Shown: positions 1-57,512 of the stretch, one piece after another
How positions within the stretch are numbered: position 1 is the first letter of the stretch
Layout: each line of letters starts with the position of its first letter
NCBI GenBank assembly: GCA_030141605.1
Contig: JAQGDQ010000515.1
Location: 1-64,000 of the forward strand
DNA: 64,000 nucleotides
Direction of reading: 5' to 3'
Source of the DNA: Tubiluchus corallicola
Lineage: Eukaryota > Animalia > Priapulida
Notes under the pieces: model-generated
The model's database searches: none
Told to the model about the DNA's origin: nothing
Seen by the model: the letters and a program-made list of their open reading frames with translations, nothing else
Position numbers and translations under genes: made by a program

Positions 1-1
1 C

Positions 2-769
2 CTACGTCAAGGGGGCAGAGATGTACGATTTCGTCAAAAAACATCTCCCCAAAAATCGCGTGGTCATACGCGTAGAAGATCTGGAAAGCGAGCACCCGCC
101 GCCCGCCATACGTTGGCAGAGCAACGGACGAGGCAGAGCGGTTCGGGCGTCCGAAACGATTGCCAACTACGTTCTAACGTGTCAGTCCAAACGGTCAACA
201 TCGTCGCCACTGCTTCGTTCTCGCAGCGCTTCGATCTGAACGAACTCCGGCGGAGAACGGGCGGAAGACGCTACGAAAGAAAACCGCAAATGGTTCTGCT
301 GAAGCGACTGGGCGGGACGCTGATGATTTTTGCCTCCGGCTCCGTGGTGGCCAACGGTTTTTCGGAGGAAAAAGTACTACGCAATGCGATCGAAGAACTC
401 TCGAAAGGTCTCGGACTGACGCCCGCCGACGGGATCGCAATTCGCACCATCACCGCCAGAGCCAAAATTCACTGCAGATTGAAACTGGGTGCACTGTACG
501 AAGAACTCGTTCGTCCTTCGACGCATTCTTTTAGAGAAGTGTTTTACGAAGTGGAACTATTTCCCAAACTAACTTGCAAATGCGAGCAAATTACTCTGAA
601 CATTTTTCACACCGGAAGCATAATAATGATGGGCGGGACAAAGCTCGAGGATTTCTCTCGCGTTTTCCGCAAATTTAACGAATTCGTTTTTAACAACAAT
701 AACGTTTGTCTGTATCACATCGACGACGACGACGACAATCCATGTACTCGCTCGTCGTCATTAGTGTAG
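2..769 (+). CDS. Divergent TATA-box-binding protein (TBP)-like protein, intronless; frame is open to the window edge
   Basis: Two TBP repeats are recognisable: VQTVNIVATASF..FDL / TLMIFASGSVVANG and IRTITARAKIHCRLKL / FYEVELFPKL / TLNIFHTGSIIMMGGTK (canonical: NIVST, TALIFSSGKMVCTG, YEPELFPGL, LLIFVSGKVVLTGAK). ORF track gives 113-769 from a TTG; I read no stop in this frame from position 2 and no ATG before the first repeat. Confidence 0.85.
   Translation, partial: LRQGGRDVRFRQKTSPQKSRGHTRRRSGKRAPAARHTLAEQRTRQSGSGVRNDCQLRSNVSVQTVNIVATASFSQRFDLNELRRRTGGRRYERKPQMVLLKRLGGTLMIFASGSVVANGFSEEKVLRNAIEELSKGLGLTPADGIAIRTITARAKIHCRLKLGALYEELVRPSTHSFREVFYEVELFPKLTCKCEQITLNIFHTGSIIMMGGTKLEDFSRVFRKFNEFVFNNNNVCLYHIDDDDDNPCTRSSSLV
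3..239 (+). CDS. C-terminal part of an uncharacterised protein resembling small DEDD-nuclease-like ORFs of Polinton-like elements
   Basis: Frame from position 3 reads YVKGAEMYDFVKKHLPKNRVVIRVEDLESEHPP, which resembles a YVKGxEK..F/WL....V.NLE...P motif I recall from such element ORFs (recollection only). Overlaps the TBP-like frame. Confidence 0.4.
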   Translation, partial: YVKGAEMYDFVKKHLPKNRVVIRVEDLESEHPPPAIRWQSNGRGRAVRASETIANYVLTCQSKRSTSSPLLRSRSASI

Positions 770-901
770 TTTTACTGTAATTTGCATAATTTGTGTAATT
801 TGCGAAAAAAACGTAAAATGTAGAACTATCATGTCACCATAATAATAATAATCTAGTTTTAGCACGTATGTATTTTGCATAAAAAATGTAAAAAAATTTT
901 A

Positions 902-1049
902 TGTAATCCATCAATAAAAAAAGATTTGTGAAAATGCATTTATCGAACTTTGGCGTTTGAAATAAATCTCCACACCTGTAATCCATCAATAAAAAAGATT
1001 TGTGAAAATGCATTTATCAAACTTTGGCATTTGAAATAAATCTCCACAC
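902..1049. repeat. Tandem duplication of a ~75-bp AT-rich unit, each copy with AATAAA motifs
   Basis: tgtaatccatcaataaaaaa..gatttgtgaaaatgcatttatc..actttggc.tttgaaataaatctccacac occurs twice; candidate polyadenylation signals downstream of the TBP-like ORF. Confidence 0.85.
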
Positions 1050-1947
1050 GCACACACACACACACACACACATCTAAACCCGCGAGAGAAGTGGTCGCGG
1101 AAAAGGGAGGACACCCGAGAGAGAGAGAAGTGGTCGCGGAAAAGGGCCGGCACTGCGCGAGTGGCGGGAAAAAGATTTCCCTCATTGCCTGCAGTGGACG
1201 ATTCCACGCGACGGAGGGGTGGGTTGCAGGGGGGGTGTCCCCGACCCCCGGGACGGACGTTTGCATGCGGCGGAGGGGTGGCAGGGGCTCCCCAATTAGC
1301 GCCAATTAGCGCCAATTAGCACTAATTAGTCCTCGGCGGGAACTCCACTTCTCCCTTTTTCTTCGTTTGAGGCGCTTTTTACCTCGTTTCACACACTTTC
1401 ACACACTTTCACACGCTTTCACACGCTTTCATGCGCTTTCACACACTTTCGCGCGCTTTCACGCGGTTTTGCGGGGTTTAAAATGGGGTGTCAAAAAAAA
1501 GAAGCCATCCAGGGGCCAGGGGTCAATGAACTTTGGTCACGTGACCTAGAGTTCAAGGTCATTCGATCCAAATGAAGCCATGCGGGAGGGAAAAAATGGA
1601 AAATTTTTACCTCGTTTCACACGCCTTTTCTTCGTTTTTCTTTGTTTTTCGCGCTTTTTCGTCGATTTCGGTCACGTGCACACTTTCACACGGGTTTTCA
1701 CACTTTTTTAGGGGTTTTCGTGGATTTTCGCACTTTTTTAGGGGTGTTTTTCCCCACCCCCCCGGGGAAATCCCCACCCCCCCCCCCCCGGGAAATCGGC
1801 CAGAGGTGTAACATCTATCCTACTTGCCTCCTCTCTCCCTCTCTCTCTCTCTCTTGCCTCACACGCGTCGTTTGCCAGTATTGACATTTATTAAGGACTG
1901 GTCTTGAGAATAAAGCAGTTTTTCTTTCAATTGTTCTTTCCTTTAAC

Positions 1948-2121
1948 AACTGTATAACTCCATATTTTCTCTTCGAAAATGCTTCTCCGGCGTTCTAGCA
2001 GTCCAAAAATTTTCTGGGCGTCAACCATGCTGGCGCCTGCTCCGCGGCGCTTTGCCCTACCCCCGATCGGGCCTCACACGCCCCACTTCCCCGGGCCTCG
2101 CCTAGGCTGAAATAGGCCCTG
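1948..2121 (+). mobile_element. 3' part of a hAT-like MITE (same family as 48763-49019)
   Basis: Shares actgtataactccatattttctcttcgaaaatgcttctccggcgttctagcagt and the terminal ctaggctgaaataggccctg with the complete copy. Confidence 0.8.
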
Positions 2122-4809
2122 CTTGGAAGGTACTTAGTACAATATAATCTCTTCTTTAAATGCAAACGCTCGTTTATATGACATGCAGTGATGCTAACAC
2201 GACGTTCAAAACCGTTTAACATTCGACCGGACATCAGTTGAAAGGAGAGTTTACATTCAGAATGAGAATCTTTCTGTTTTTTAAATAACAAATAATAAAA
2301 ACGAATTACGCGTTCAAATTAGCATGATCGAAAGCCACTTACGGACTGCTTCATTTTGGAAATAAAACTAGAATCAACACTTATGGATCCCGTCTTCAAT
2401 GTTGGTGGACTGCAAAATCAACAGTAACTGATCAAAACTATAAAAAATAAATAATTATTATTGTAATGTATACGCTCAAATCAAAGTTGCGTTCCCATAT
2501 CTATGTAGTTTATTCTGCAAAAAAGTACAAATTTTCTGTAGTCTACAACTACTACATCTACAAATCTAGTGAAATAAAAGTGCTAGAAAATAAGTGCTAC
2601 AGATTACTACGTTACACTAAAAAAGCTAAAATGCATACATACATTGTTGGTCCAATATTGAGTCGAGAAAAAGCCAGAATGTCAGTAAAAGGTAGCAGTA
2701 TAATTATAAGACAATTTTTAAATGCAACAAAGACGTGCGTACATGACAAGTTGCACCTATACAATGTCAGAGTAGAAAAAGTAGTCTAGATGTTGAGCTA
2801 CAGTCTAATATATTGTGGCTTCTAATGCATATACTACCTTGAGAAGAGGTAATGGACCAAAACATTTGCACCTGCAACAATTATTCTTACACTTTTACCC
2901 TTGCTCTTGACGATAGCAGTAGTTCGGGCAAAATACGGAGATTTTAATGCACAATAGAATGAGAATCTTTCTATTTTTGAATAATACAAAAGAAAAGAAA
3001 AAAAAATACATGTGATATACTGGAAAATAAAGATTTATAATCAAGAAACACGGTGGTGCAAACAGACCCCCCCCCCCCATTGCAAGCATTCTATTCAGTA
3101 TTTTGTTTTTATATAATTAGGCCTTTTGCTTTGTTGAATGGAAATAAAGGATAAATACTTTTATTATGTAACAGCATTCGAATTTAAATTATTTAATGTT
3201 ATTAAAACTCAAATCAAATTTTATATAAACTTATGCAATTTTCCCAAGATGCCTACTTTCGCAAAATGAAAGAAATCCCTTATGTTAGTCGAACATAAAT
3301 GGAATTTTAAAAATGCTAAGGAACCAAATTATTCTTAACGCATATCCCCAAAACCGATTATATATAACGGAAATATCCTGCCTAAAAACGCTATTTTCTG
3401 AACGCACATCATAGATCTCATTGTTCTCATAACTGAAATTCAAAAATTTTGGTTGTTAAAACCGCCTTCAAAACCGCAAATGTTCATGAAATACAATTCG
3501 GTGCCCGGACACTTTTTCTAGCACACCATCAGACACAGATATTCTGACCTGCTCAAGTTGAGCATGAAATCCAGAGTTTATGATAGTAAAAGCTACAAAC
3601 GTTACTAGCTCATACAATTGGATGGTTTGAGTATTTCATTGCAGTAGCACAGCACCTGGACTTCCCTGTGCAGCCGTAAGATTAAAAGTAACTGTAAGAC
3701 TTCTGCTTATTGCAGCAATATTGCCCTCGAATTTATTGATACAGTGTTTAGCTACCCAGTTAAACGAAATTCGTTTACATTTAAATACATGCAGAATTTC
3801 TTTTCATTTACTTGGGTGCATAGTAGTCTATTTTCAGTTTGTTAATGATACGATACCAAGTAGTTTTCATCTCACAAAAAAGTTGGCAAAATATTGCGCG
3901 CCTGTTTACCACAACAGACATAGGAATTCGGCTACGGTATGGTAATGATAAATAAATTTAAGGTTGTCATACTCAGTGAGAATCATTTAAATTCCTTTGT
4001 GTAATTTCAACAATGAGAAACAGGAAAAACCACACATGTATGCTAATTCATAAAAGTAACTAATATTATTTCACGTCACTGCATATATACATAATTTTTC
4101 CCAATACCTGAACTAGGCGTGCCGCTTTTTAACAGGTTAATATTAAGTTAATAATTTTAGCGATAAAGTGATCTAATATTAAAATTTAAAGCTTCTGCTG
4201 CTTATGAGACACGTTCCCATTATCGTCTGCTACAACACAGTGCAAAATCTTTGCAGCACGCACTGATTGCAGAGGCAAGACTTTCTTTTTCAAGTTCGAC
4301 GCCGTTGCCGCAAGTGAAACAATAACGCTCTTACAGCGACAAGTCTGTTGCCTGACTCGAAATCTCGAACACAATATCAGATTACAATAAATTTTATTAT
4401 AATAATTATTACAGTAGTTATGCCAATATCAACATAACATTATTCAATTTTGACGACAACAGTAAAACTAGTAGTAACGATGATTATAACGTAACATGAC
4501 AATATGATAAAAATCACAATGACCTAAAAACGTCCAATTTCCACTTCCCTTAACAGGAAAAACAAGAAGGAGATGTTTGAATGCAAACTGTAACATTTTG
4601 CACGGCTTCACATATGTTGGATTTAGAATAATTTTCTGACGGGTACGCGAGAGCCGCGAGACAGTTAGATTATAGCTGCCAGCATCTTTAAGGCATGTAG
4701 GCTTACTAGCACAGTTAGGCGAAACCATCGAACACAAAGTTTAACAGTAACCTTTGCTTTTATGCGATTTGTTTTTATTTTTGTGCATTGTTTACTGCTG
4801 ACCATTTAA

Positions 4810-5340
4810 CTCCTTCAGAACCGTAAGCTTTTGCTGCATTTTGCTTGGGTTCATGAAAAACTACTTTCATTAAGCAACGATTACACTATATTATTTTGAT
4901 AATTTTCGTAGATTTCACCTCTTCGCACAATGCGCTTTCATGCAAAGTTATATATGAAATGCAGTTGCTTACTTTACATAAATTAAAAATCGATTGTTGA
5001 CGAAAAAATTGGAAAAAAGCTTCCAATACCTGCAGTGTTTGGGCTATGGCAAGCATCGCCCAACGATCAGGAAAGTAGTGTGCACGATCGTGCAAGTGTA
5101 CACCAGACTAACCAACTCGATAGGGTCAGGCTGAGTGCCTGAAAAAAGCATGTTTTTCTTAATTTTATCCAATAAAATTACTTATAGATGCCGAGACGCA
5201 GAGCATGACTGAATGGCCATGACTTACTTGAATAGAACAATATCCAATTTATAAGTAATTAGTTATGTCTGTGCTCGTACAGAAGCAGTAAAGTCATAGG
5301 TCTTATAAGACCAATTTTGAATGGTGCGGTCCTGAAAAAG
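4810..5340. mobile_element. piggyBac-like non-autonomous element
   Basis: TTAA on both sides (4806-4809, 5341-5344); imperfect TIR CTCCTTCAGAACCGTA / TGCGGTCCTGAAAAAG. Confidence 0.65.
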
Positions 5341-15392: not shown

Positions 15393-15471
15393 CGTTTCTC
15401 TTTTCTGCATGGTCACTTTCGCCATCTAGTGCTAGCTAAAGACACTTTCATGTTTAATAGTTTTTACTGAA

Positions 15472-18192
15472 CGTCCCCATGTCCTAAATATACATGTCCC
15501 TATAAGGACCTTGTCAAGAAAGGAAAGCAAAACATTTAACAAACCTTGGATTACTCCAGGGCTATTAACTTCAATTCAAAAACGAAGCACAATGTACAAA
15601 ACACATAAAATATCACCTTCGGAATATGACAGAAACATATATAAAGTATACTCAAATAGGCTGAATCATCTAAAAAACATTGCTAAGAAAAATTTTTACG
15701 AAAACTTATTTACAGTACACAGCAACAATATAAAAAAGACATGGATGAATATTAATAACATACTGGGTAGAAATAACAAAACTCAATCTGCACCTGAGAA
15801 ACTCAAATACAATGGCCGCACATTAACAGATAAAATGGAAATTGCAAATGCTTTCAACAACTTTTTTCAATCTATTGGCGAAAATATGGCCAAAAAAATT
15901 CCACCATCACTAGTTAGTTTTGACTCATATCTAACAAACAGAAATGAAAAAACAATATTTTTTTACCCAGTGACACAAGCCGAAATAAAAGCTGAAATTA
16001 ATAAGCTCAATGAATCAAATTCTACTGGTCACGAAAACGAACCTAATAAATACTATAAGCTTGCTGCTAATAAAATTGTCCCCATTTTAACCCATCTTTT
16101 CAACCTATCAGTTACACAAGGAGTCTTTCCCGACTTTCTCAAAATAGCTAAAGTGACACCTGTATTTAAAGCTGACTCACCCGAGGAACCAACAAATTAT
16201 CGTCCAATTTCTATACTGTCTCCTATATCTAAGATCTATGAAATTATTATATACAACCGCCTCATCAATTTCCTAAATTCTTGCAGTGTACTCACAAAAT
16301 GCCAATTTCGATTCAGAAAAAACCATTCAACTGCTCTAGCTACAGCAGAGCTCATTGAAAACATGCTCAAGAATTTAGATAATCGAACTTATACATGCGG
16401 AATTTTTCTAGACTTATCTAAAGCTTTTGACTCAGTCTCCCATCATATAATCTTACATAAACTTAATCACTATGGCATACGAGGTAATACATTAAAATTA
16501 ATAACAAATTATCTAATAAACAGACAACAATATACAGTGGTACAAAACAATGCTTCTAATTTACTTAAGATAAACTGTGGAGTACCACAAGGGTCAACAT
16601 TAGGACCACTTTTGTTTCTTATATACATGAACGACATGCCGCTTGTTACCAACTTCAATACACGCCTCTTTGCTGACGACACAAACCTATTCCTTAATGA
16701 TTCAGACATAGATCGCCTCCAACAACGAACGAACGAAGAACTCAAAAAAATCTCAATTTGGATGAAAGCCAATAAACTATCTGTAAATTATGCAAAAACT
16801 AAATATATGATAATCAAACATAAATCATCTTCAAACGATGTTATTCCTTTTACGTTAAAAATGGACAACAATGAAATTATGCAGGCTACATCGATAAAAT
16901 ATCTTGGGCTTTATATAGACAACACTTTGAAATGGCAGACACATATACAAACAATAGCACAAAAAATTAACAAAATAATTGGTTTATTCTACAAAATACG
17001 ACACTTTATTACCAAAAAAACACTGCTAATACTTTACTATGCACTAATATACCCCTATCTACATTACTGCATTCTTTCTTGGGGTAGAGCAAAAACCACT
17101 ACTCTTCACCCATTAATTACTGCCCAAAACAAAATAGTCAAATGTATTACTTTTTCTGCCTACAGGGATCGAGCTACGCCTTCATACAAATATCTGAAAC
17201 TACTAAAGCTAGCTGATATATACAACTTGGAATTACTTAAGTTTATGTTTAAATACAAACACGGCATTTTACTTACTCTTTATACAAATTATTTCCAAAA
17301 GGTTAGCAATATTCATACTTATGAAACACGAGCAGCAACAAGTGGTTTTTATTACCAGGCCCGATATAAAACATCATTTGGCCTAAACACACTGCAACAT
17401 AATGGAATCAAACTTTGGAACGCCTTAGATACTTTAATAACCACCTGCTCATCCTTATTACAAATAACTAAAAAGTACAAAAAGCGACTAATTGAAAACT
17501 ACATTTAGTATACTATAGTTAAATTTAATCGAGCTGGAAAATAACATGATGATATTGCATAAAATTGTATTTTTTTGTACAGTACAAAGACCTTAAATTC
17601 ATCACTTTTTTATTTATTCTTTGTGTTGTTTAGAAACCGAATACATCTAAAAATCAAGTGAATCTAAATGAATTGTTTTTGTCGAAGGCATGTAGAAATC
17701 TTTTGAACTGTAACTACACGTATTCAGAAAGTTTTATTTATTGCATGAACATATTCGCTTACTATGCTTTGCCTCCAGAGTGAATGTTGCATCACAAAAA
17801 TTCTGCTCGCATAATTATATATTTTATTCTAGCCTTGTTTTGATTTTTTGTTTTCGCCTTGCGAAGATTTTTGTTACTGTTGCTTGTAATATGTTTGGCT
17901 TTAAACTGAATTCTGTTTTTGCTGTTGAGTTTGATTTTGTTGCTTTTGTGTGTTATAATTTTTGCCCCTAGTTGAATCCTGTTTTTGTTTTGATTATGAT
18001 AATTTCTTTTGTTTTGAGTTGAATTGCGTTTGTTTTATGAAAATGTCATCACCCTGTAAATAAACTTTTAATAAGGGGCAGCTGACCAAGTAACCAATAG
18101 GTCTTTCGCTGCTCCTTCTCGGCTACAATGAAATATGTAAATAACTATTAATTTTAAACTGCTAATGAGAAAATAAATTGAATTGAATTGAA
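15472..18192 (+). mobile_element. 5'-truncated non-LTR retrotransposon (CR1/L2/Crack group LINE)
   Basis: RT ORF lacking the endonuclease; long 3' UTR with stem-loop (aaggggcagc..gacc...ggtc..gctgctcctt, ~18073-18117); AATAAA followed by a (TTGAA)n tail at ~18172-18192; possible TSD tactgaac/tactgtac. Confidence 0.88.
15511..17508 (+). CDS. LINE ORF2 reverse transcriptase (N-terminally truncated)
   Basis: KPWIT, NYRPISIL, FLDLSKAFDSVSH, GVPQGSTLGPLLFLIYMND, LFADDT, KYLGL; 665 codons without a stop. Confidence 0.92.
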   Translation: MSRKESKTFNKPWITPGLLTSIQKRSTMYKTHKISPSEYDRNIYKVYSNRLNHLKNIAKKNFYENLFTVHSNNIKKTWMNINNILGRNNKTQSAPEKLKYNGRTLTDKMEIANAFNNFFQSIGENMAKKIPPSLVSFDSYLTNRNEKTIFFYPVTQAEIKAEINKLNESNSTGHENEPNKYYKLAANKIVPILTHLFNLSVTQGVFPDFLKIAKVTPVFKADSPEEPTNYRPISILSPISKIYEIIIYNRLINFLNSCSVLTKCQFRFRKNHSTALATAELIENMLKNLDNRTYTCGIFLDLSKAFDSVSHHIILHKLNHYGIRGNTLKLITNYLINRQQYTVVQNNASNLLKINCGVPQGSTLGPLLFLIYMNDMPLVTNFNTRLFADDTNLFLNDSDIDRLQQRTNEELKKISIWMKANKLSVNYAKTKYMIIKHKSSSNDVIPFTLKMDNNEIMQATSIKYLGLYIDNTLKWQTHIQTIAQKINKIIGLFYKIRHFITKKTLLILYYALIYPYLHYCILSWGRAKTTTLHPLITAQNKIVKCITFSAYRDRATPSYKYLKLLKLADIYNLELLKFMFKYKHGILLTLYTNYFQKVSNIHTYETRAATSGFYYQARYKTSFGLNTLQHNGIKLWNALDTLITTCSSLLQITKKYKKRLIENYI

Positions 18193-19460: not shown

Positions 19461-20744
19461 TCAGGAAATCATTTTCCTTTCAATGCATTTTCTAAGCAGC
19501 AACAGAACTTTTAAGCGAATTTGTACATCTTGAATAAACCCAGACGCAGGGTCCATGACGGTGCTAAACTGTGCAATATTTATTGCTTTCCATGGCCCTT
19601 TCTTTGTATCTTCATTTAGGAAAGTTTTGAGTGACCTTTGTGGATTATTGTTAATCACTTCAATGTAACTGTTTTTACATATTCTACGTAAAGTAAGAGA
19701 AGAGGAATGAACTATTAAATTCAAGCAACAGCCTTCACCACGGTTATCTCTAGTGTAAAGAAAAATTTTAAGCTCATGAGCATCACCAATGATTGCAATC
19801 TTTTCTAATACACGAAGTGTACATCCTCCTATTTTTAAATTATTAATTATCTCAACAGGAACAGCACACATGACTGACACGACTTCTGCGTAGTTTCTCT
19901 GCGTTTTTGGAAATATTGATTCTGATGCCACTTTTTGATGGTAAGTTATTAGAACATTTTCTTGCTCCTCGGCATTTAATATTCCAGTTGCTACCGGTCC
20001 TTTGATGAATAACTCTGGATCCATTGTGGGAAATCTGATCTGCAACAAAATGTCACATAAGACTGTTCTCTTGTTGAACACATTTTGCTCTAGGTTCTTT
20101 CGCTTGCATTCAGCATCAGCCCATCTTAAAACTGCATCAAATAGTTTCCCCTCTTCAGTAATTGTCAGTTCATCAAGCTTGACAATCCTCAATAAGCTGT
20201 CATAGCTCAAAGAAGTAAAACTGTCGGACTCTATAACTTCTTCCGTCTCGACACTAATGACCTCCAAACAGTTCATCTCTACATCTCGCCTTTCATAGAA
20301 ACAAGCAGCTGTCAGAATGGTACAAACACTGTCAGTTGTGATTTCAGATTTAAGGAAACCAATAGCCAATTTTTCAAGTTCACGAATGTTGTATTTTTTA
20401 GCTAAGTAAAGTACCAAAAGAACATTATCACCAGTTAATTCAGCTTTGTCAGTATAAATGAACCTCAAAAGCAGCAGGAACACGTCAGGTTCAACGTCGG
20501 TTATTGGTACGACATCACCAAGTTTATGACACAGCGGCCCAAACAGCATCGTCTTAAAAACCTCACTTCTGAGTGCAAGTACGTACCGACTGGCGTTGAT
20601 GATGGTTTCACCAACTGAAAAAGTTACATCACATAATTCCTGGAAATCTTCGTTACCAAAAACATAATCGTATCTCTGGTTCCAGTTGCCCATCGCATCA
20701 ACCCTTTCAGCTAGAGTTTGCGGCTCAGCTAATGAAGTGGCCAT
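19461..20744 (-). CDS. BTB/POZ-BACK protein with C-terminal MATH-like domain (BTBD1/2/3/6-like N-terminus), intronless CDS
   Basis: CDVTFSVG..RYVLALRSEVFKTMLFG, DVEPDVFLLLLRFIYTD, LYLAKKY, LFDAVLRWA, IRFPTM; C-terminal W....F..VMDPASGFIQD..I...V matches the end of a MATH domain. Confidence 0.88.
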   Translation of the reverse strand: MATSLAEPQTLAERVDAMGNWNQRYDYVFGNEDFQELCDVTFSVGETIINASRYVLALRSEVFKTMLFGPLCHKLGDVVPITDVEPDVFLLLLRFIYTDKAELTGDNVLLVLYLAKKYNIRELEKLAIGFLKSEITTDSVCTILTAACFYERRDVEMNCLEVISVETEEVIESDSFTSLSYDSLLRIVKLDELTITEEGKLFDAVLRWADAECKRKNLEQNVFNKRTVLCDILLQIRFPTMDPELFIKGPVATGILNAEEQENVLITYHQKVASESIFPKTQRNYAEVVSVMCAVPVEIINNLKIGGCTLRVLEKIAIIGDAHELKIFLYTRDNRGEGCCLNLIVHSSSLTLRRICKNSYIEVINNNPQRSLKTFLNEDTKKGPWKAINIAQFSTVMDPASGFIQDVQIRLKVLLLLRKCIERKMIS

Positions 20745-21082
20745 CCTTTGACGAACGAAATTTACTGAATTACTTTAGTTGTACATTCACTATGACTGAC
20801 TCAACAACTCGTGAACAAAGTCAGCGTGCCACAGTAGTTTACTGCATTTTCTTGCAGCGGTAAAGGTAGCAACGTTTGGAGGAAAAATAGCTTCCAGTGT
20901 GTTTAGCAGTTGCAAGAAAAAGCGTCTAATGCAACAGCAATGCCTGCACACATAATCTGATTTTTAAGTTGCTTAATTTTTAAGTTAAATCGCCACAAAA
21001 CGCAACGCAACTGCTGCTGAAAGACAGGTGCACCCCCACATCGCAATAGACTCTTCCACTTGTTTTTGCACAACGTATAGTA

Positions 21083-22879: not shown

Positions 22880-24433
<1,554 letters not shown>

Positions 24434-27311: not shown

Positions 27312-44383
<17,072 letters not shown>

Positions 44384-48479: not shown

Positions 48480-49335
48480 AGGAAAACCGGACGCAATCTT
48501 AAACTGTAGGTCAAAACAATCTACTCTTCAAAATACTAAAAGGAAACTTACTATTTTTTCAAAAATGACTCACGTGAAAGAATTATTATCACATAAACAC
48601 AATTTCAAATTTGCGCCACTAGTTCTTCGCTGTTACAGGCATTTCTCCATTTGCTGGTTAGACGGGCACTAGCGTCTACATTTCGGAAATCCATTGCTCA
48701 AAAAACAGGTTATGGTTCTCAATTCAAATATGTTAGTTTCTGATGAACTACATACATTCGACCAGGGCGTATTTCAAGGGGGGGGGAGTGGGGATACTTC
48801 CCCGGGGCCTCACCCTCCAGGGGGCCTCGCGCCAAGGAAACATTATTTTTTTTGCTTCATACGAACATACTGTATAACTCCATATTTTCTCTTCGAAAAT
48901 GCTTCTCCGGCGTTCTAGCAGTTCAAAAATTTTCTGGGCGCCCCGGCGCTTCGCCCCCCCCCAAGGAGCCCTCACACACCCCACTTCCCCGGGCCGTGCT
49001 TAGGCTGAAATAGGCCCTGCATTCGACTGGTAATACGTAAGCACAGCGGTAAATTTGAAATTTGGATTTTTATCTTAAAACTTGCCTAGTTTCAGTACAA
49101 CACACTGAATATCTTACAGTAGCACTGCACTTCAGTATTCACTTTCACGAACACGTGCAACAAGCTCGTGAAATATTTTTGCTGTTTAAATTGTGACGTC
49201 ATTAATAGTTGGGCTTGCCCACCATTAATTAAGTTTTTATTTATATTATTTAATATTAAAAAACGCTTTTGCACTATTAATCGTGTTAAAATGTAGACAT
49301 GAAAATGGGGCAGTATATGAAAAATCGTCCTGTCA
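48480..49335 (+). mobile_element. Kolobok-like MITE family A copy interrupted by a hAT MITE
   Basis: TTAA-AGGAAAACCGGAC start; colinear with 30742-31371 on both sides of the insertion. Confidence 0.75.
48763..49019 (+). mobile_element. hAT-like MITE, complete, 257 bp
   Basis: Perfect 8-bp TSD CATTCGAC (48755-48762, 49020-49027); TIR CAGGGCGTATTTCA / TGAAATAGGCCCTG. Confidence 0.9.
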
Positions 49336-56468: not shown

Positions 56469-57512
56469 CTAAGCCAGTACTTGCAATATGTCATATTTAT
56501 ATGACCTGTGGTGTTCGCACTTTCCGCAAGGTGGAGCCACTAGTTTCCAGCTACCGTCTGGAGTTTGCTCGCACGACACGGCACTGCAGTACGGGGTCCT
56601 GTGAAGGACTTGGTGAAAACCATGCTGATCACGCGTCGGTTTACCCGTCAGATTTCTCGTAAGAACCTCCAAGGACGCCCCGTGTGCAACCATAAGGACA
56701 TTGCCAGCCGTTCTCTCTAAAATTGTTCTGACTAGGAAATGGCTTCTCTCGTAATACTGAGCCAGACTTTCATTAATGTCCAAATCTGAAGTTTGGATGA
56801 CGGGCGCATAGGACATGTCCACATTGAAGCCAAAGTCAACCATTTGTCTTGGAGTCAGAAACACCGGCTTCACTTCTCGGAACCAGGCCATCCACTCGAA
56901 AAGACCGGGTTCTACCCTCAATAGCATGTTTTCAAACCCGAGTGACTTTAGTAGCTCTGTAGCTGTTGACAAGCACCTCAGGGCAGGAGAACAGTAAACA
57001 TGGGACAAGGTCACCCCAGAATCTTTCATCACCTGTCCTGTCAGCATCGCCTGTGTTAATCCAACCCTGGTCAAAGGACAATCTCGATCGAATTCAGCAG
57101 GACGGCGTTTTGGAATCATTCTGGGCATGTTTGCATCTAGAATACGATACTTGCCGTCACGGTCAAAGCAGTTCTCTATCCACCAGTCTCCACCGTAAGT
57201 AAAGTCGACTCTCTCCGCGTGGCGAACAACGTACAGCTTCCGGGAAGTGCGACACTTGGCGCTGGACAGCTCATCATCACATCTCTCTTCTGCATTTTGA
57301 ATTAACCATTCTAAAGCTTCCTCTGCTGTGCCGCCTGTTTCTTTTAAAGCTTCTTCAGCAGCTGACTGTGGCAAGCCAGATTTTACTAGTGCCTTGAGAG
57401 GTGAAACTGCTCTTACAGGCTGGGTTGAGATTGTATGAGATGCCACACTTTTTAGTTTTCGAACTGGCGGTTCGACGACATGTGTAGTTGCAACATCTGA
57501 CATGACAGTCAT
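56469..57512 (-). CDS. UBASH3/Sts (ecdysteroid-phosphate-phosphatase family)-like protein: UBA + histidine phosphatase only, intronless CDS
   Basis: UBA-like LKALVKSGLPQSAAEEALKETGGTAEEALEWL; phosphatase motifs LYVVRHAERVD, DCPLT, VYCSPALRC, EPGLFEW, VAHGASL, PYCS. Confidence 0.9.
   Translation of the reverse strand: MTVMSDVATTHVVEPPVRKLKSVASHTISTQPVRAVSPLKALVKSGLPQSAAEEALKETGGTAEEALEWLIQNAEERCDDELSSAKCRTSRKLYVVRHAERVDFTYGGDWWIENCFDRDGKYRILDANMPRMIPKRRPAEFDRDCPLTRVGLTQAMLTGQVMKDSGVTLSHVYCSPALRCLSTATELLKSLGFENMLLRVEPGLFEWMAWFREVKPVFLTPRQMVDFGFNVDMSYAPVIQTSDLDINESLAQYYERSHFLVRTILERTAGNVLMVAHGASLEVLTRNLTGKPTRDQHGFHQVLHRTPYCSAVSCEQTPDGSWKLVAPPCGKCEHHRSYKYDILQVLA

Follow-up and report, generated by a model that had tools for sequence, protein, structure and literature searches.

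The described elements closest to the one analyzed here are the Mavericks or Polintons (adintoviruses). Vertebrate Mavericks end in (AGT)2, (AG)3 or (AC)3A, have 6-bp duplications and inverted repeats of 46–1447 bp, and carry accessory regions flanking their core; high copy numbers among them often represent defective copies (PMC8097293). The Maverick core-gene lists in the accessible parts of two sources (PMC8097293; bioRxiv 10.1101/2023.08.22.554363) name no transcription factor. In a literature search that left subscription papers and Repbase mostly outside, Polintons and TBP appeared together only in Starrett et al. 2021 (PMC8502044), where the legend of Fig. 5 applies the label TBP to a gene of MELD viruses with an adintovirus-like PolB. 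This legend entry is the only mention in the accessible text of that article, which gives neither the element nor a function, and one supplement searched for the TBP gene contained no match.

BcRF1 of beta- and gamma-herpesviruses has a TBP fold and turns host RNA polymerase II to a variant box, the TATT box (PMC4922670), which resembles the model proposed below for the protein studied here (the query). However, BcRF1 is a large protein in a six-protein complex, whereas the query has about 175 residues, a bare saddle with the TFIIB stirrup kept, and the fold similarity between the two is weak (rank 46, E 1.8e-3). The TBPs of Nucleocytoviricota (Heterosigma akashiwo virus, EsV-1-53, asfarvirus B263R, mimivirids) have the same two-repeat TBP fold as the query, but they are 7–20% identical to it and no nearer than cellular TBP. 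Most such Nucleocytoviricota bring their own RNA polymerase.

The query gene lies at the beginning of the window, the whole 64,000-nucleotide stretch of Tubiluchus corallicola DNA that was analyzed. Like Mavericks, the element that carries it has an AGT-type end, a long non-coding end region, accessory frames beside that end and many dispersed copies, and only the last 1.8 kb of the element is within the window. It differs from the Mavericks of the sources cited above in ending with AGTAGG rather than (AGT)2 or (AG)3, and in having a TBP gene, which is outside their listed core genes. It resembles the MELD viruses of Starrett et al. in that a TBP-like gene resides in what is probably a Polinton-type element. 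We describe the TBP-bearing, Maverick-like element as a barely described variant within a known class; the 'undescribed class' considered in the original prediction is not supported, because a known class has this end motif and Fig. 5 of PMC8502044 already uses the TBP label in its legend. The features of the window are listed in Table 1.

Table 1. Features of the window with their positions, strand and basis
Feature	Position	Strand	Basis or remark
TBP-fold open frame	2..769	+	Frame 2, already open at window start; Pfam, fold model, alignment
Upstream open frame, ATG at 21	3..239	+	Frame 3, open at window start; overlaps first TBP strand
Candidate branch point TTCTAAC	172-178	+	Unusually close to the AG; noticed after the fact
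Candidate 3' splice site CAG	183-185	+	At the codon aligned with the start Met of relatives
TBP core within frame 2	about 185-715	+	
First-strand Asn codon of TBP core	197	+	
Stirrup YEVELF	545-562	+	
AT-rich 3' region (25% GC), candidate polyadenylation region	770..1049	+	AATAAA at 913, 961, 988, 1035
Non-coding, GC-rich end region containing C runs; putative terminal inverted repeat	1050..1824	.	
Element terminus 5'-AGTAGG	1819..1824	-	Depth collapse and loose ends
Candidate 6-bp target-site duplication TGCCTC	1825..1830	+	Position from the 1824 end
Right part of hAT-like miniature element, 80% identical	1945-2121		Just past the Maverick-like end
Reverse-transcriptase frame	15436-17508	+	
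BTB-BACK frame	19461-20774	-	
Second, partial BTB-BACK-like frame	23701-24312	-	By likeness only
Tubulin-tyrosine-ligase-family exons	33403-33861, 36807-37352	-	
hAT-like miniature element, full copy	48763-49019		14-bp inverted ends (13/14 match), 8-bp duplication CATTCGAC
Single-exon UBA + histidine-phosphatase frame	56469-57512	-	

The original prediction described a two-repeat TBP-fold reading frame that has diverged strongly from cellular TBP, and both points were borne out. The frame has 255 intact codons with all core motifs and a short acidic tail. Pfam PF00352 matched it in two stretches corresponding to both repeats (E 5.3e-21, 74.7 bits; cut-off 22.9), and in the comparison with solved structures cellular TBPs were the best matches, at E 6e-9 or weaker. 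The AlphaFold model reached a pLDDT of 94.8 with an input alignment of 20 rows. The fold search with this model ranked cellular TBPs at the top (TM 0.71–0.84, identity 19–26%), and viral TBPs scored similar or lower with 7–20% identity. The gene and its TBP fold class are real, and the protein is heavily diverged from cellular TBP.

The end of the element was located using sequencing reads; four of six runs contain the stretch, and they come from two samples and two studies, one of them possibly the source. The depth over 1–1800 was 21,000–153,000 in run X3 compared with about 190 in bins such as 3001–3360, and 150–2,800 compared with 9 or less in run X4. One 753-nt contig of X4 spans 33–785 with 7 differences and no gap at a depth of 536, against 8.8–9.6 for the flank contigs; the resulting ratio near 60 gives the order of magnitude only, since depth is not copy number and free copies could add to it. 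Within the stretch 1690–1834, the depth dropped from bin 1820–1824 to bin 1825–1829 in all four runs (564 to 3, 2649 to 63, 29141 to 699 and 358 to 21), that is, 35- to 180-fold, and 17-fold in X4. At least three X4 contigs stop at 1824, and at least six loose ends, each with another flank, were found at 1824, 1825 (two), 1826 (two) and 1831 in the four runs of the two samples; among the ends listed, none lies at 1813. Bases 1–1824 are the right end of a multi-copy, young inserted element, and the end sequence is ...CATCTATCCTACT at 1824, or 5'-AGTAGGATAG on the other strand.

These data agree with the predicted mobile, multi-copy element with a sharp end, as depth is in excess over 1–1800 and the flanks differ after 1824. 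The position of the end had to be corrected: the predicted terminus at 1813 is 11 bases short of the real one, and TCTATC, proposed as the target-site duplication, is element DNA inside the 1824 end. Because the element ends at 1824, TGCCTC is the candidate duplication instead. This word occurs twice, at 1825 and 1855, flanking a CT microsatellite. The predicted abrupt CpG switch at 1813 was not seen either, as the observed/expected ratio, although high within the gene (1.59 in 1–770), is near 1 to either side of 1813 (1.02 in 1031–1813, 0.89 in 1814–2121 and 0.97 in 2122–5000). The GC content is 51% through 2121 and falls only beyond, because another repeat follows the element end. No contig bridges the junction of this copy past 1831; a microsatellite follows there, so the unbridged junction is no evidence either way. 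X5, a run with the same species label, is without the element family, but it is without the very abundant 1945–2121 repeat too; the run is thus not comparable and says nothing about a presence/absence polymorphism.

The end region contains 10-bp tandem arrays at 1292–1329, 1387–1462 and 1626–1650. Contigs in three runs match only the last 124 bases (1701–1824) and then diverge inward, with depths of 192 in X4 and 116 in X3. These contigs represent a second subfamily or a derivative with the same end, and such ends therefore serve more than one subfamily.

The element is probably a Maverick/Polinton. This assignment is based on the terminus because the core genes (protein-primed DNA polymerase B, retroviral-type integrase, packaging ATPase, protease, and major and minor capsid genes) and the left end fall outside the window. 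Five of the six bases of AGTAGG match (AGT)2, a Maverick end motif. The dispersed copies have one sharp end and differing flanks, as expected of a Maverick. The original guess of a Polinton or adintovirus thus gains a firmer footing from the AGTAG-type end at 1824, but the TG...CA terminus that accompanied it is not. TGTNR termini are characteristic of Ginger and Gypsy (PMC2836005), and a TG...CA element of this kind (Ginger, Gypsy LTR) was rejected since the TGTTAC word sits 11 bases inside the true end. The end pattern was also searched for in metagenome and viral contigs, giving 19 and 6 exact matches, respectively; these are chance matches because none extends further, with no more than 9 of the following 30 bases in agreement.

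The gene had been predicted to be intronless, which was not confirmed for its 5' end. ATG occurs only at 21 (frame 3) and 290 (frame 2); the latter is the sole in-frame ATG for the TBP and falls inside the first repeat, and a protein begun there would be without the first strand and helix. Because no in-frame ATG precedes 290, the 5' end of the gene may be spliced. In 20 of the 47 short relatives examined (34 of which matched the pattern), a Met precedes the first Asn by four residues, a position corresponding to codon 185–187 in the query frame. The candidate acceptor lies at this codon, preceded by a candidate branch point that is unusually near the AG; CTAAC has a frequency of 0.72 per kb in the window, and there is no strong donor within 1–170. 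We give roughly even odds to a TBP mRNA spliced from an upstream leader to the acceptor at 185. Less likely is an extension of frame 2 that begins at an ATG outside the window, or initiation at a non-AUG codon; a frameshift fusion of frame 3 to frame 2 and a loss of function of the TBP gene are each improbable. A -1 ribosomal frameshift from frame 3 to frame 2 was rejected, as no X-XXY-YYZ heptamer occurs in the needed phase at 183–195.

The absent start does not appear to be peculiar to this copy. The gene model of P0001, the sole close relative of the query (59% identity), likewise starts at this internal Met, so the two seem to have a gene structure in common and a single lesion is the poorer explanation. 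The main X4 contig has no difference and no gap between 78 and 210, so the absent start is a trait of the family. The chance of frame 2 staying open beneath frame 3 is about 0.07 by codon usage. Of the differences in the main X4 contig, frame 3 is the only frame in which the one at 77 is silent, and frame 2 the only one for that at 211; the six copy differences in the TBP core (three silent, three replacement) are too few to show current selection. The upstream frame probably represents an accessory gene of its own, or the 3' portion of one, and its bases 18–57 are preserved in a diverged relative. It gave no Pfam match under E 0.1, no homolog among longer proteins and no Atlas match, and its model (pLDDT 45) was not usable as a fold. 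Downstream of the gene, 902–1049 contains a 74-bp duplication, and the AATAAA words at 913–1035 could be there by chance in AT-rich DNA.

The residues predicted to be functional were found as described: the stirrup glutamates of YExELF are present as YEVELF, and three of the four intercalating Phe are kept (MIF, ELF, NIF), the first being replaced by YERKPQM. Cellular TBP (PF00352; 1cdw, 1ytb, 1mp9) and the query have in common the saddle fold, both stirrup Glu, the first Asn and three of the Phe. Altered in the query are the first Phe, the second Asn, the two Thr, the two Lys and some of the basic patch on helix 2, and the query belongs to a separate clade. For a residue comparison, the query was aligned to a plant TBP (P0005), and 19 short relatives and 11 canonical TBPs were counted, with yeast TBP numbering and residue roles that we take to apply to the aligned query positions. 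The query keeps N69, V71, F116, F190 and F207 and, in the stirrup region, E186, E188, L189 and P191. The base-reading changes are T124N, N159T, V161T, L205N and T215M, both saddle lysines are altered (K120S, K211S), and the other changes are G192K, E93R, R105L and K145L. F99 is altered within a shortened loop and the helix-2 basic patch is partly altered (R137 and K138 to E), in alignment columns that are gappy and less sure. Set against canonical eukaryotic TBP, the query has three of the four intercalating Phe and one of the two dyad Asn.

The same pattern recurs in the 19 short relatives. The second stirrup Glu, E188, is present in 19/19 and the first, E186, in 16/19; the third Phe (F190) is kept in 19/19, the second (F116) in 17/19 and the fourth (F207) in 16/19, and the first Asn (N69) in 17/19. 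The first Phe is absent in 14/19, as in the query. N159 and V161, both invariant in the 11 canonical TBPs, occur in none of the short relatives, where Thr or Ser replaces them in 17 and 18 proteins, respectively, and the L205 position is Asn in 12/19. P0001 shows the same residue pattern as the query despite 59% identity, so long-term selection is indicated. From this comparison we infer that the TFIIB contact surface is conserved and that the base-reading floor of the saddle is altered consistently across the clade. The three Phe and the first Asn, kept while other base-reading residues changed, suggest DNA binding with changed specificity; both stirrup Glu suggest contact with TFIIB, and the partial replacement of basic residues by Glu suggests weaker contact with helix-2 partners such as TFIIA and TAFs. 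Read in this way, the residue pattern favours a private-promoter role over pure competition for TFIIB.

A profile search found 392 proteins at E 0.001 or better, and the best 150 of these matches were drawn on for a quick first tree of 146 rows (125–345 residues), with 6 longer proteins left out. In this tree the query fell inside a 20-row group of short divergent TBPs. A second profile yielded 57 further or overlapping proteins, mostly of 150–190 residues, and 48 rows picked from both searches, in groups named after the first tree, were used for a careful tree in which 23 short TBPs formed one side of a branch with support 100/98. Forcing the query and P0001 together with 14 eukaryotic TBPs was rejected (p-AU 0.0011), in a tree with long branches whose archaeal and eukaryotic labels are mostly motif-based and in which no TRF2 or nucleocytovirus row was identified. 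The trees place the query protein in a distinct clade of short metagenome TBPs, outside canonical eukaryotic TBP.

Going by the present locus, this clade may be Maverick-borne. Viral contigs searched with the query TBP and its relatives contained no confirmed relative, the prokaryote genomes and phage records searched contained none, and no genomic context of the short relatives was found in the viral and prokaryote collections. Three loci that came up in the searches were rejected as short matches only; of these, L026 and the matched part of L028 have phage-like genes and no TBP frame. Metagenomes hold a large family of TBPs of 159–175 residues (P0117, P0157–P0169 and others) that is absent from the viral contig collection searched. 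In run X5, diverged TBP-like genes are present on two contigs (947 and 2447 nt) and match 185–247 and 323–364 with a spacing 3 nt longer. Judged by these matches, related TBP-bearing families are present in the X5 sample.

We propose, with a probability of about 0.55 for the mechanism as a whole, that a Maverick-type end encodes a short TBP that acts as a private promoter factor via host TFIIB and RNA polymerase II. The element TBP would bind a non-TATA word in the promoters of the element itself and would recruit host TFIIB and RNA polymerase II. By analogy with herpesvirus BcRF1 and the TATT box, its targets may be late promoters, those for capsid and packaging. Its mRNA would carry an upstream leader joined to the acceptor at 185, which lies inside the upstream gene that the TBP frame overlaps. 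The transcript would end within the AATAAA region.

Among the alternatives, the least improbable is that the element is a non-autonomous derivative with Maverick-type ends, or an integrating DNA virus of some other class, with the TBP gene as cargo, the protein perhaps serving a helper in trans. We consider this unlikely. Core genes are indeed unseen in the 1.8-kb fragment, the variant with only the last 124 bases (loose end at 1701, three runs) means that these ends are common to more than one subfamily, and multi-copy Mavericks are often defective (PMC8097293); however, the X4 coding region is near-uniform and gap-free across copies, and compact overlapping frames beside the end region suit the accessory region of a full element. 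Next in order, and rather unlikely too, is a decoy that binds host TFIIB or sits on host promoters and so damps host transcription. The TFIIB stirrup is the best-kept surface, and the loss of the first Phe in the query and 14/19 relatives and the change of both saddle Lys to Ser speak for such a function. Nevertheless, the clade as a whole retains the first Asn and three Phe, and where base-reading residues have changed, the replacements are conserved in turn (Thr or Ser in 17/19 at the second Asn, Asn in 12/19 at the Leu), so a new specificity fits better than loss. Binding of TFIIB to TBP occurs mainly on bent DNA, which also counts against a decoy.

It is improbable that the TBP gene is now an untranslated passenger whose start codon had disappeared by the time the family expanded. 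The lack of an in-frame ATG before 290, the main X4 contig without differences in 78–210 and the 3 silent to 3 replacement differences in the core would agree with this, but the frame runs uninterrupted for 255 codons and includes every core motif, the P0001 gene model has this internal Met as its start too, the X5 relatives match in frame over the first strand and around the second Phe with the 3-nt-longer spacing, and a candidate branch point and acceptor lie at the expected start. The gene adjoins an end region full of 10-bp arrays that resemble protein-binding sites, which would suit a DNA-bending role at element ends or origins, in replication, packaging or integration rather than transcription. 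Such a role is very unlikely, as the TFIIB stirrup, needless there, is kept in 16–19 of the 19 relatives. Hardly credible are an assembly chimera and a retrocopied host TBP or TRF2, both of which the original prediction had raised. The unbridged junction past 1831 leaves some room for them, as does the absence of host TBP and TRF2 from the tree rows, but the query has 22–25% identity to cellular TBP, and its grouping with canonical eukaryotic TBP was rejected by the AU test. TRF2/TLF proteins have lost three of the four Phe and have an ELHP stirrup; the query, compared in this way with no TRF2 row identified among the sequences, keeps three Phe and has no ELHP-type stirrup. As for a chimera, the join in the window coincides with the end defined by reads from two samples.

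The private-promoter mechanism may extend beyond this element, and we suggest only tentatively that a widespread animal Maverick lineage uses a minimal TBP with host TFIIB, without TFIID, to open private non-TATA promoters for virion genes, with the TBP expressed from an adenovirus-like alternative splice acceptor nested in an upstream gene. If true, no viral late-transcription switch smaller than the minimal TBP would be known, and there would be direct evidence of a timed viral programme in these transposon-like elements. Gene control in Mavericks, which are without their own RNA polymerase, would become testable through one small protein. The clade would also be a natural set of TBP saddles in which base-reading residues are altered and TFIIB contact is kept, useful for specificity rewiring.

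The remaining genes of the window are ordinary animal DNA. The 1945–2121 repeat has a very high depth and many flanks at 2121. Another high-depth repeat lies at about 2480–2880, other copies of which carry internal repeats of 54–61 bases.
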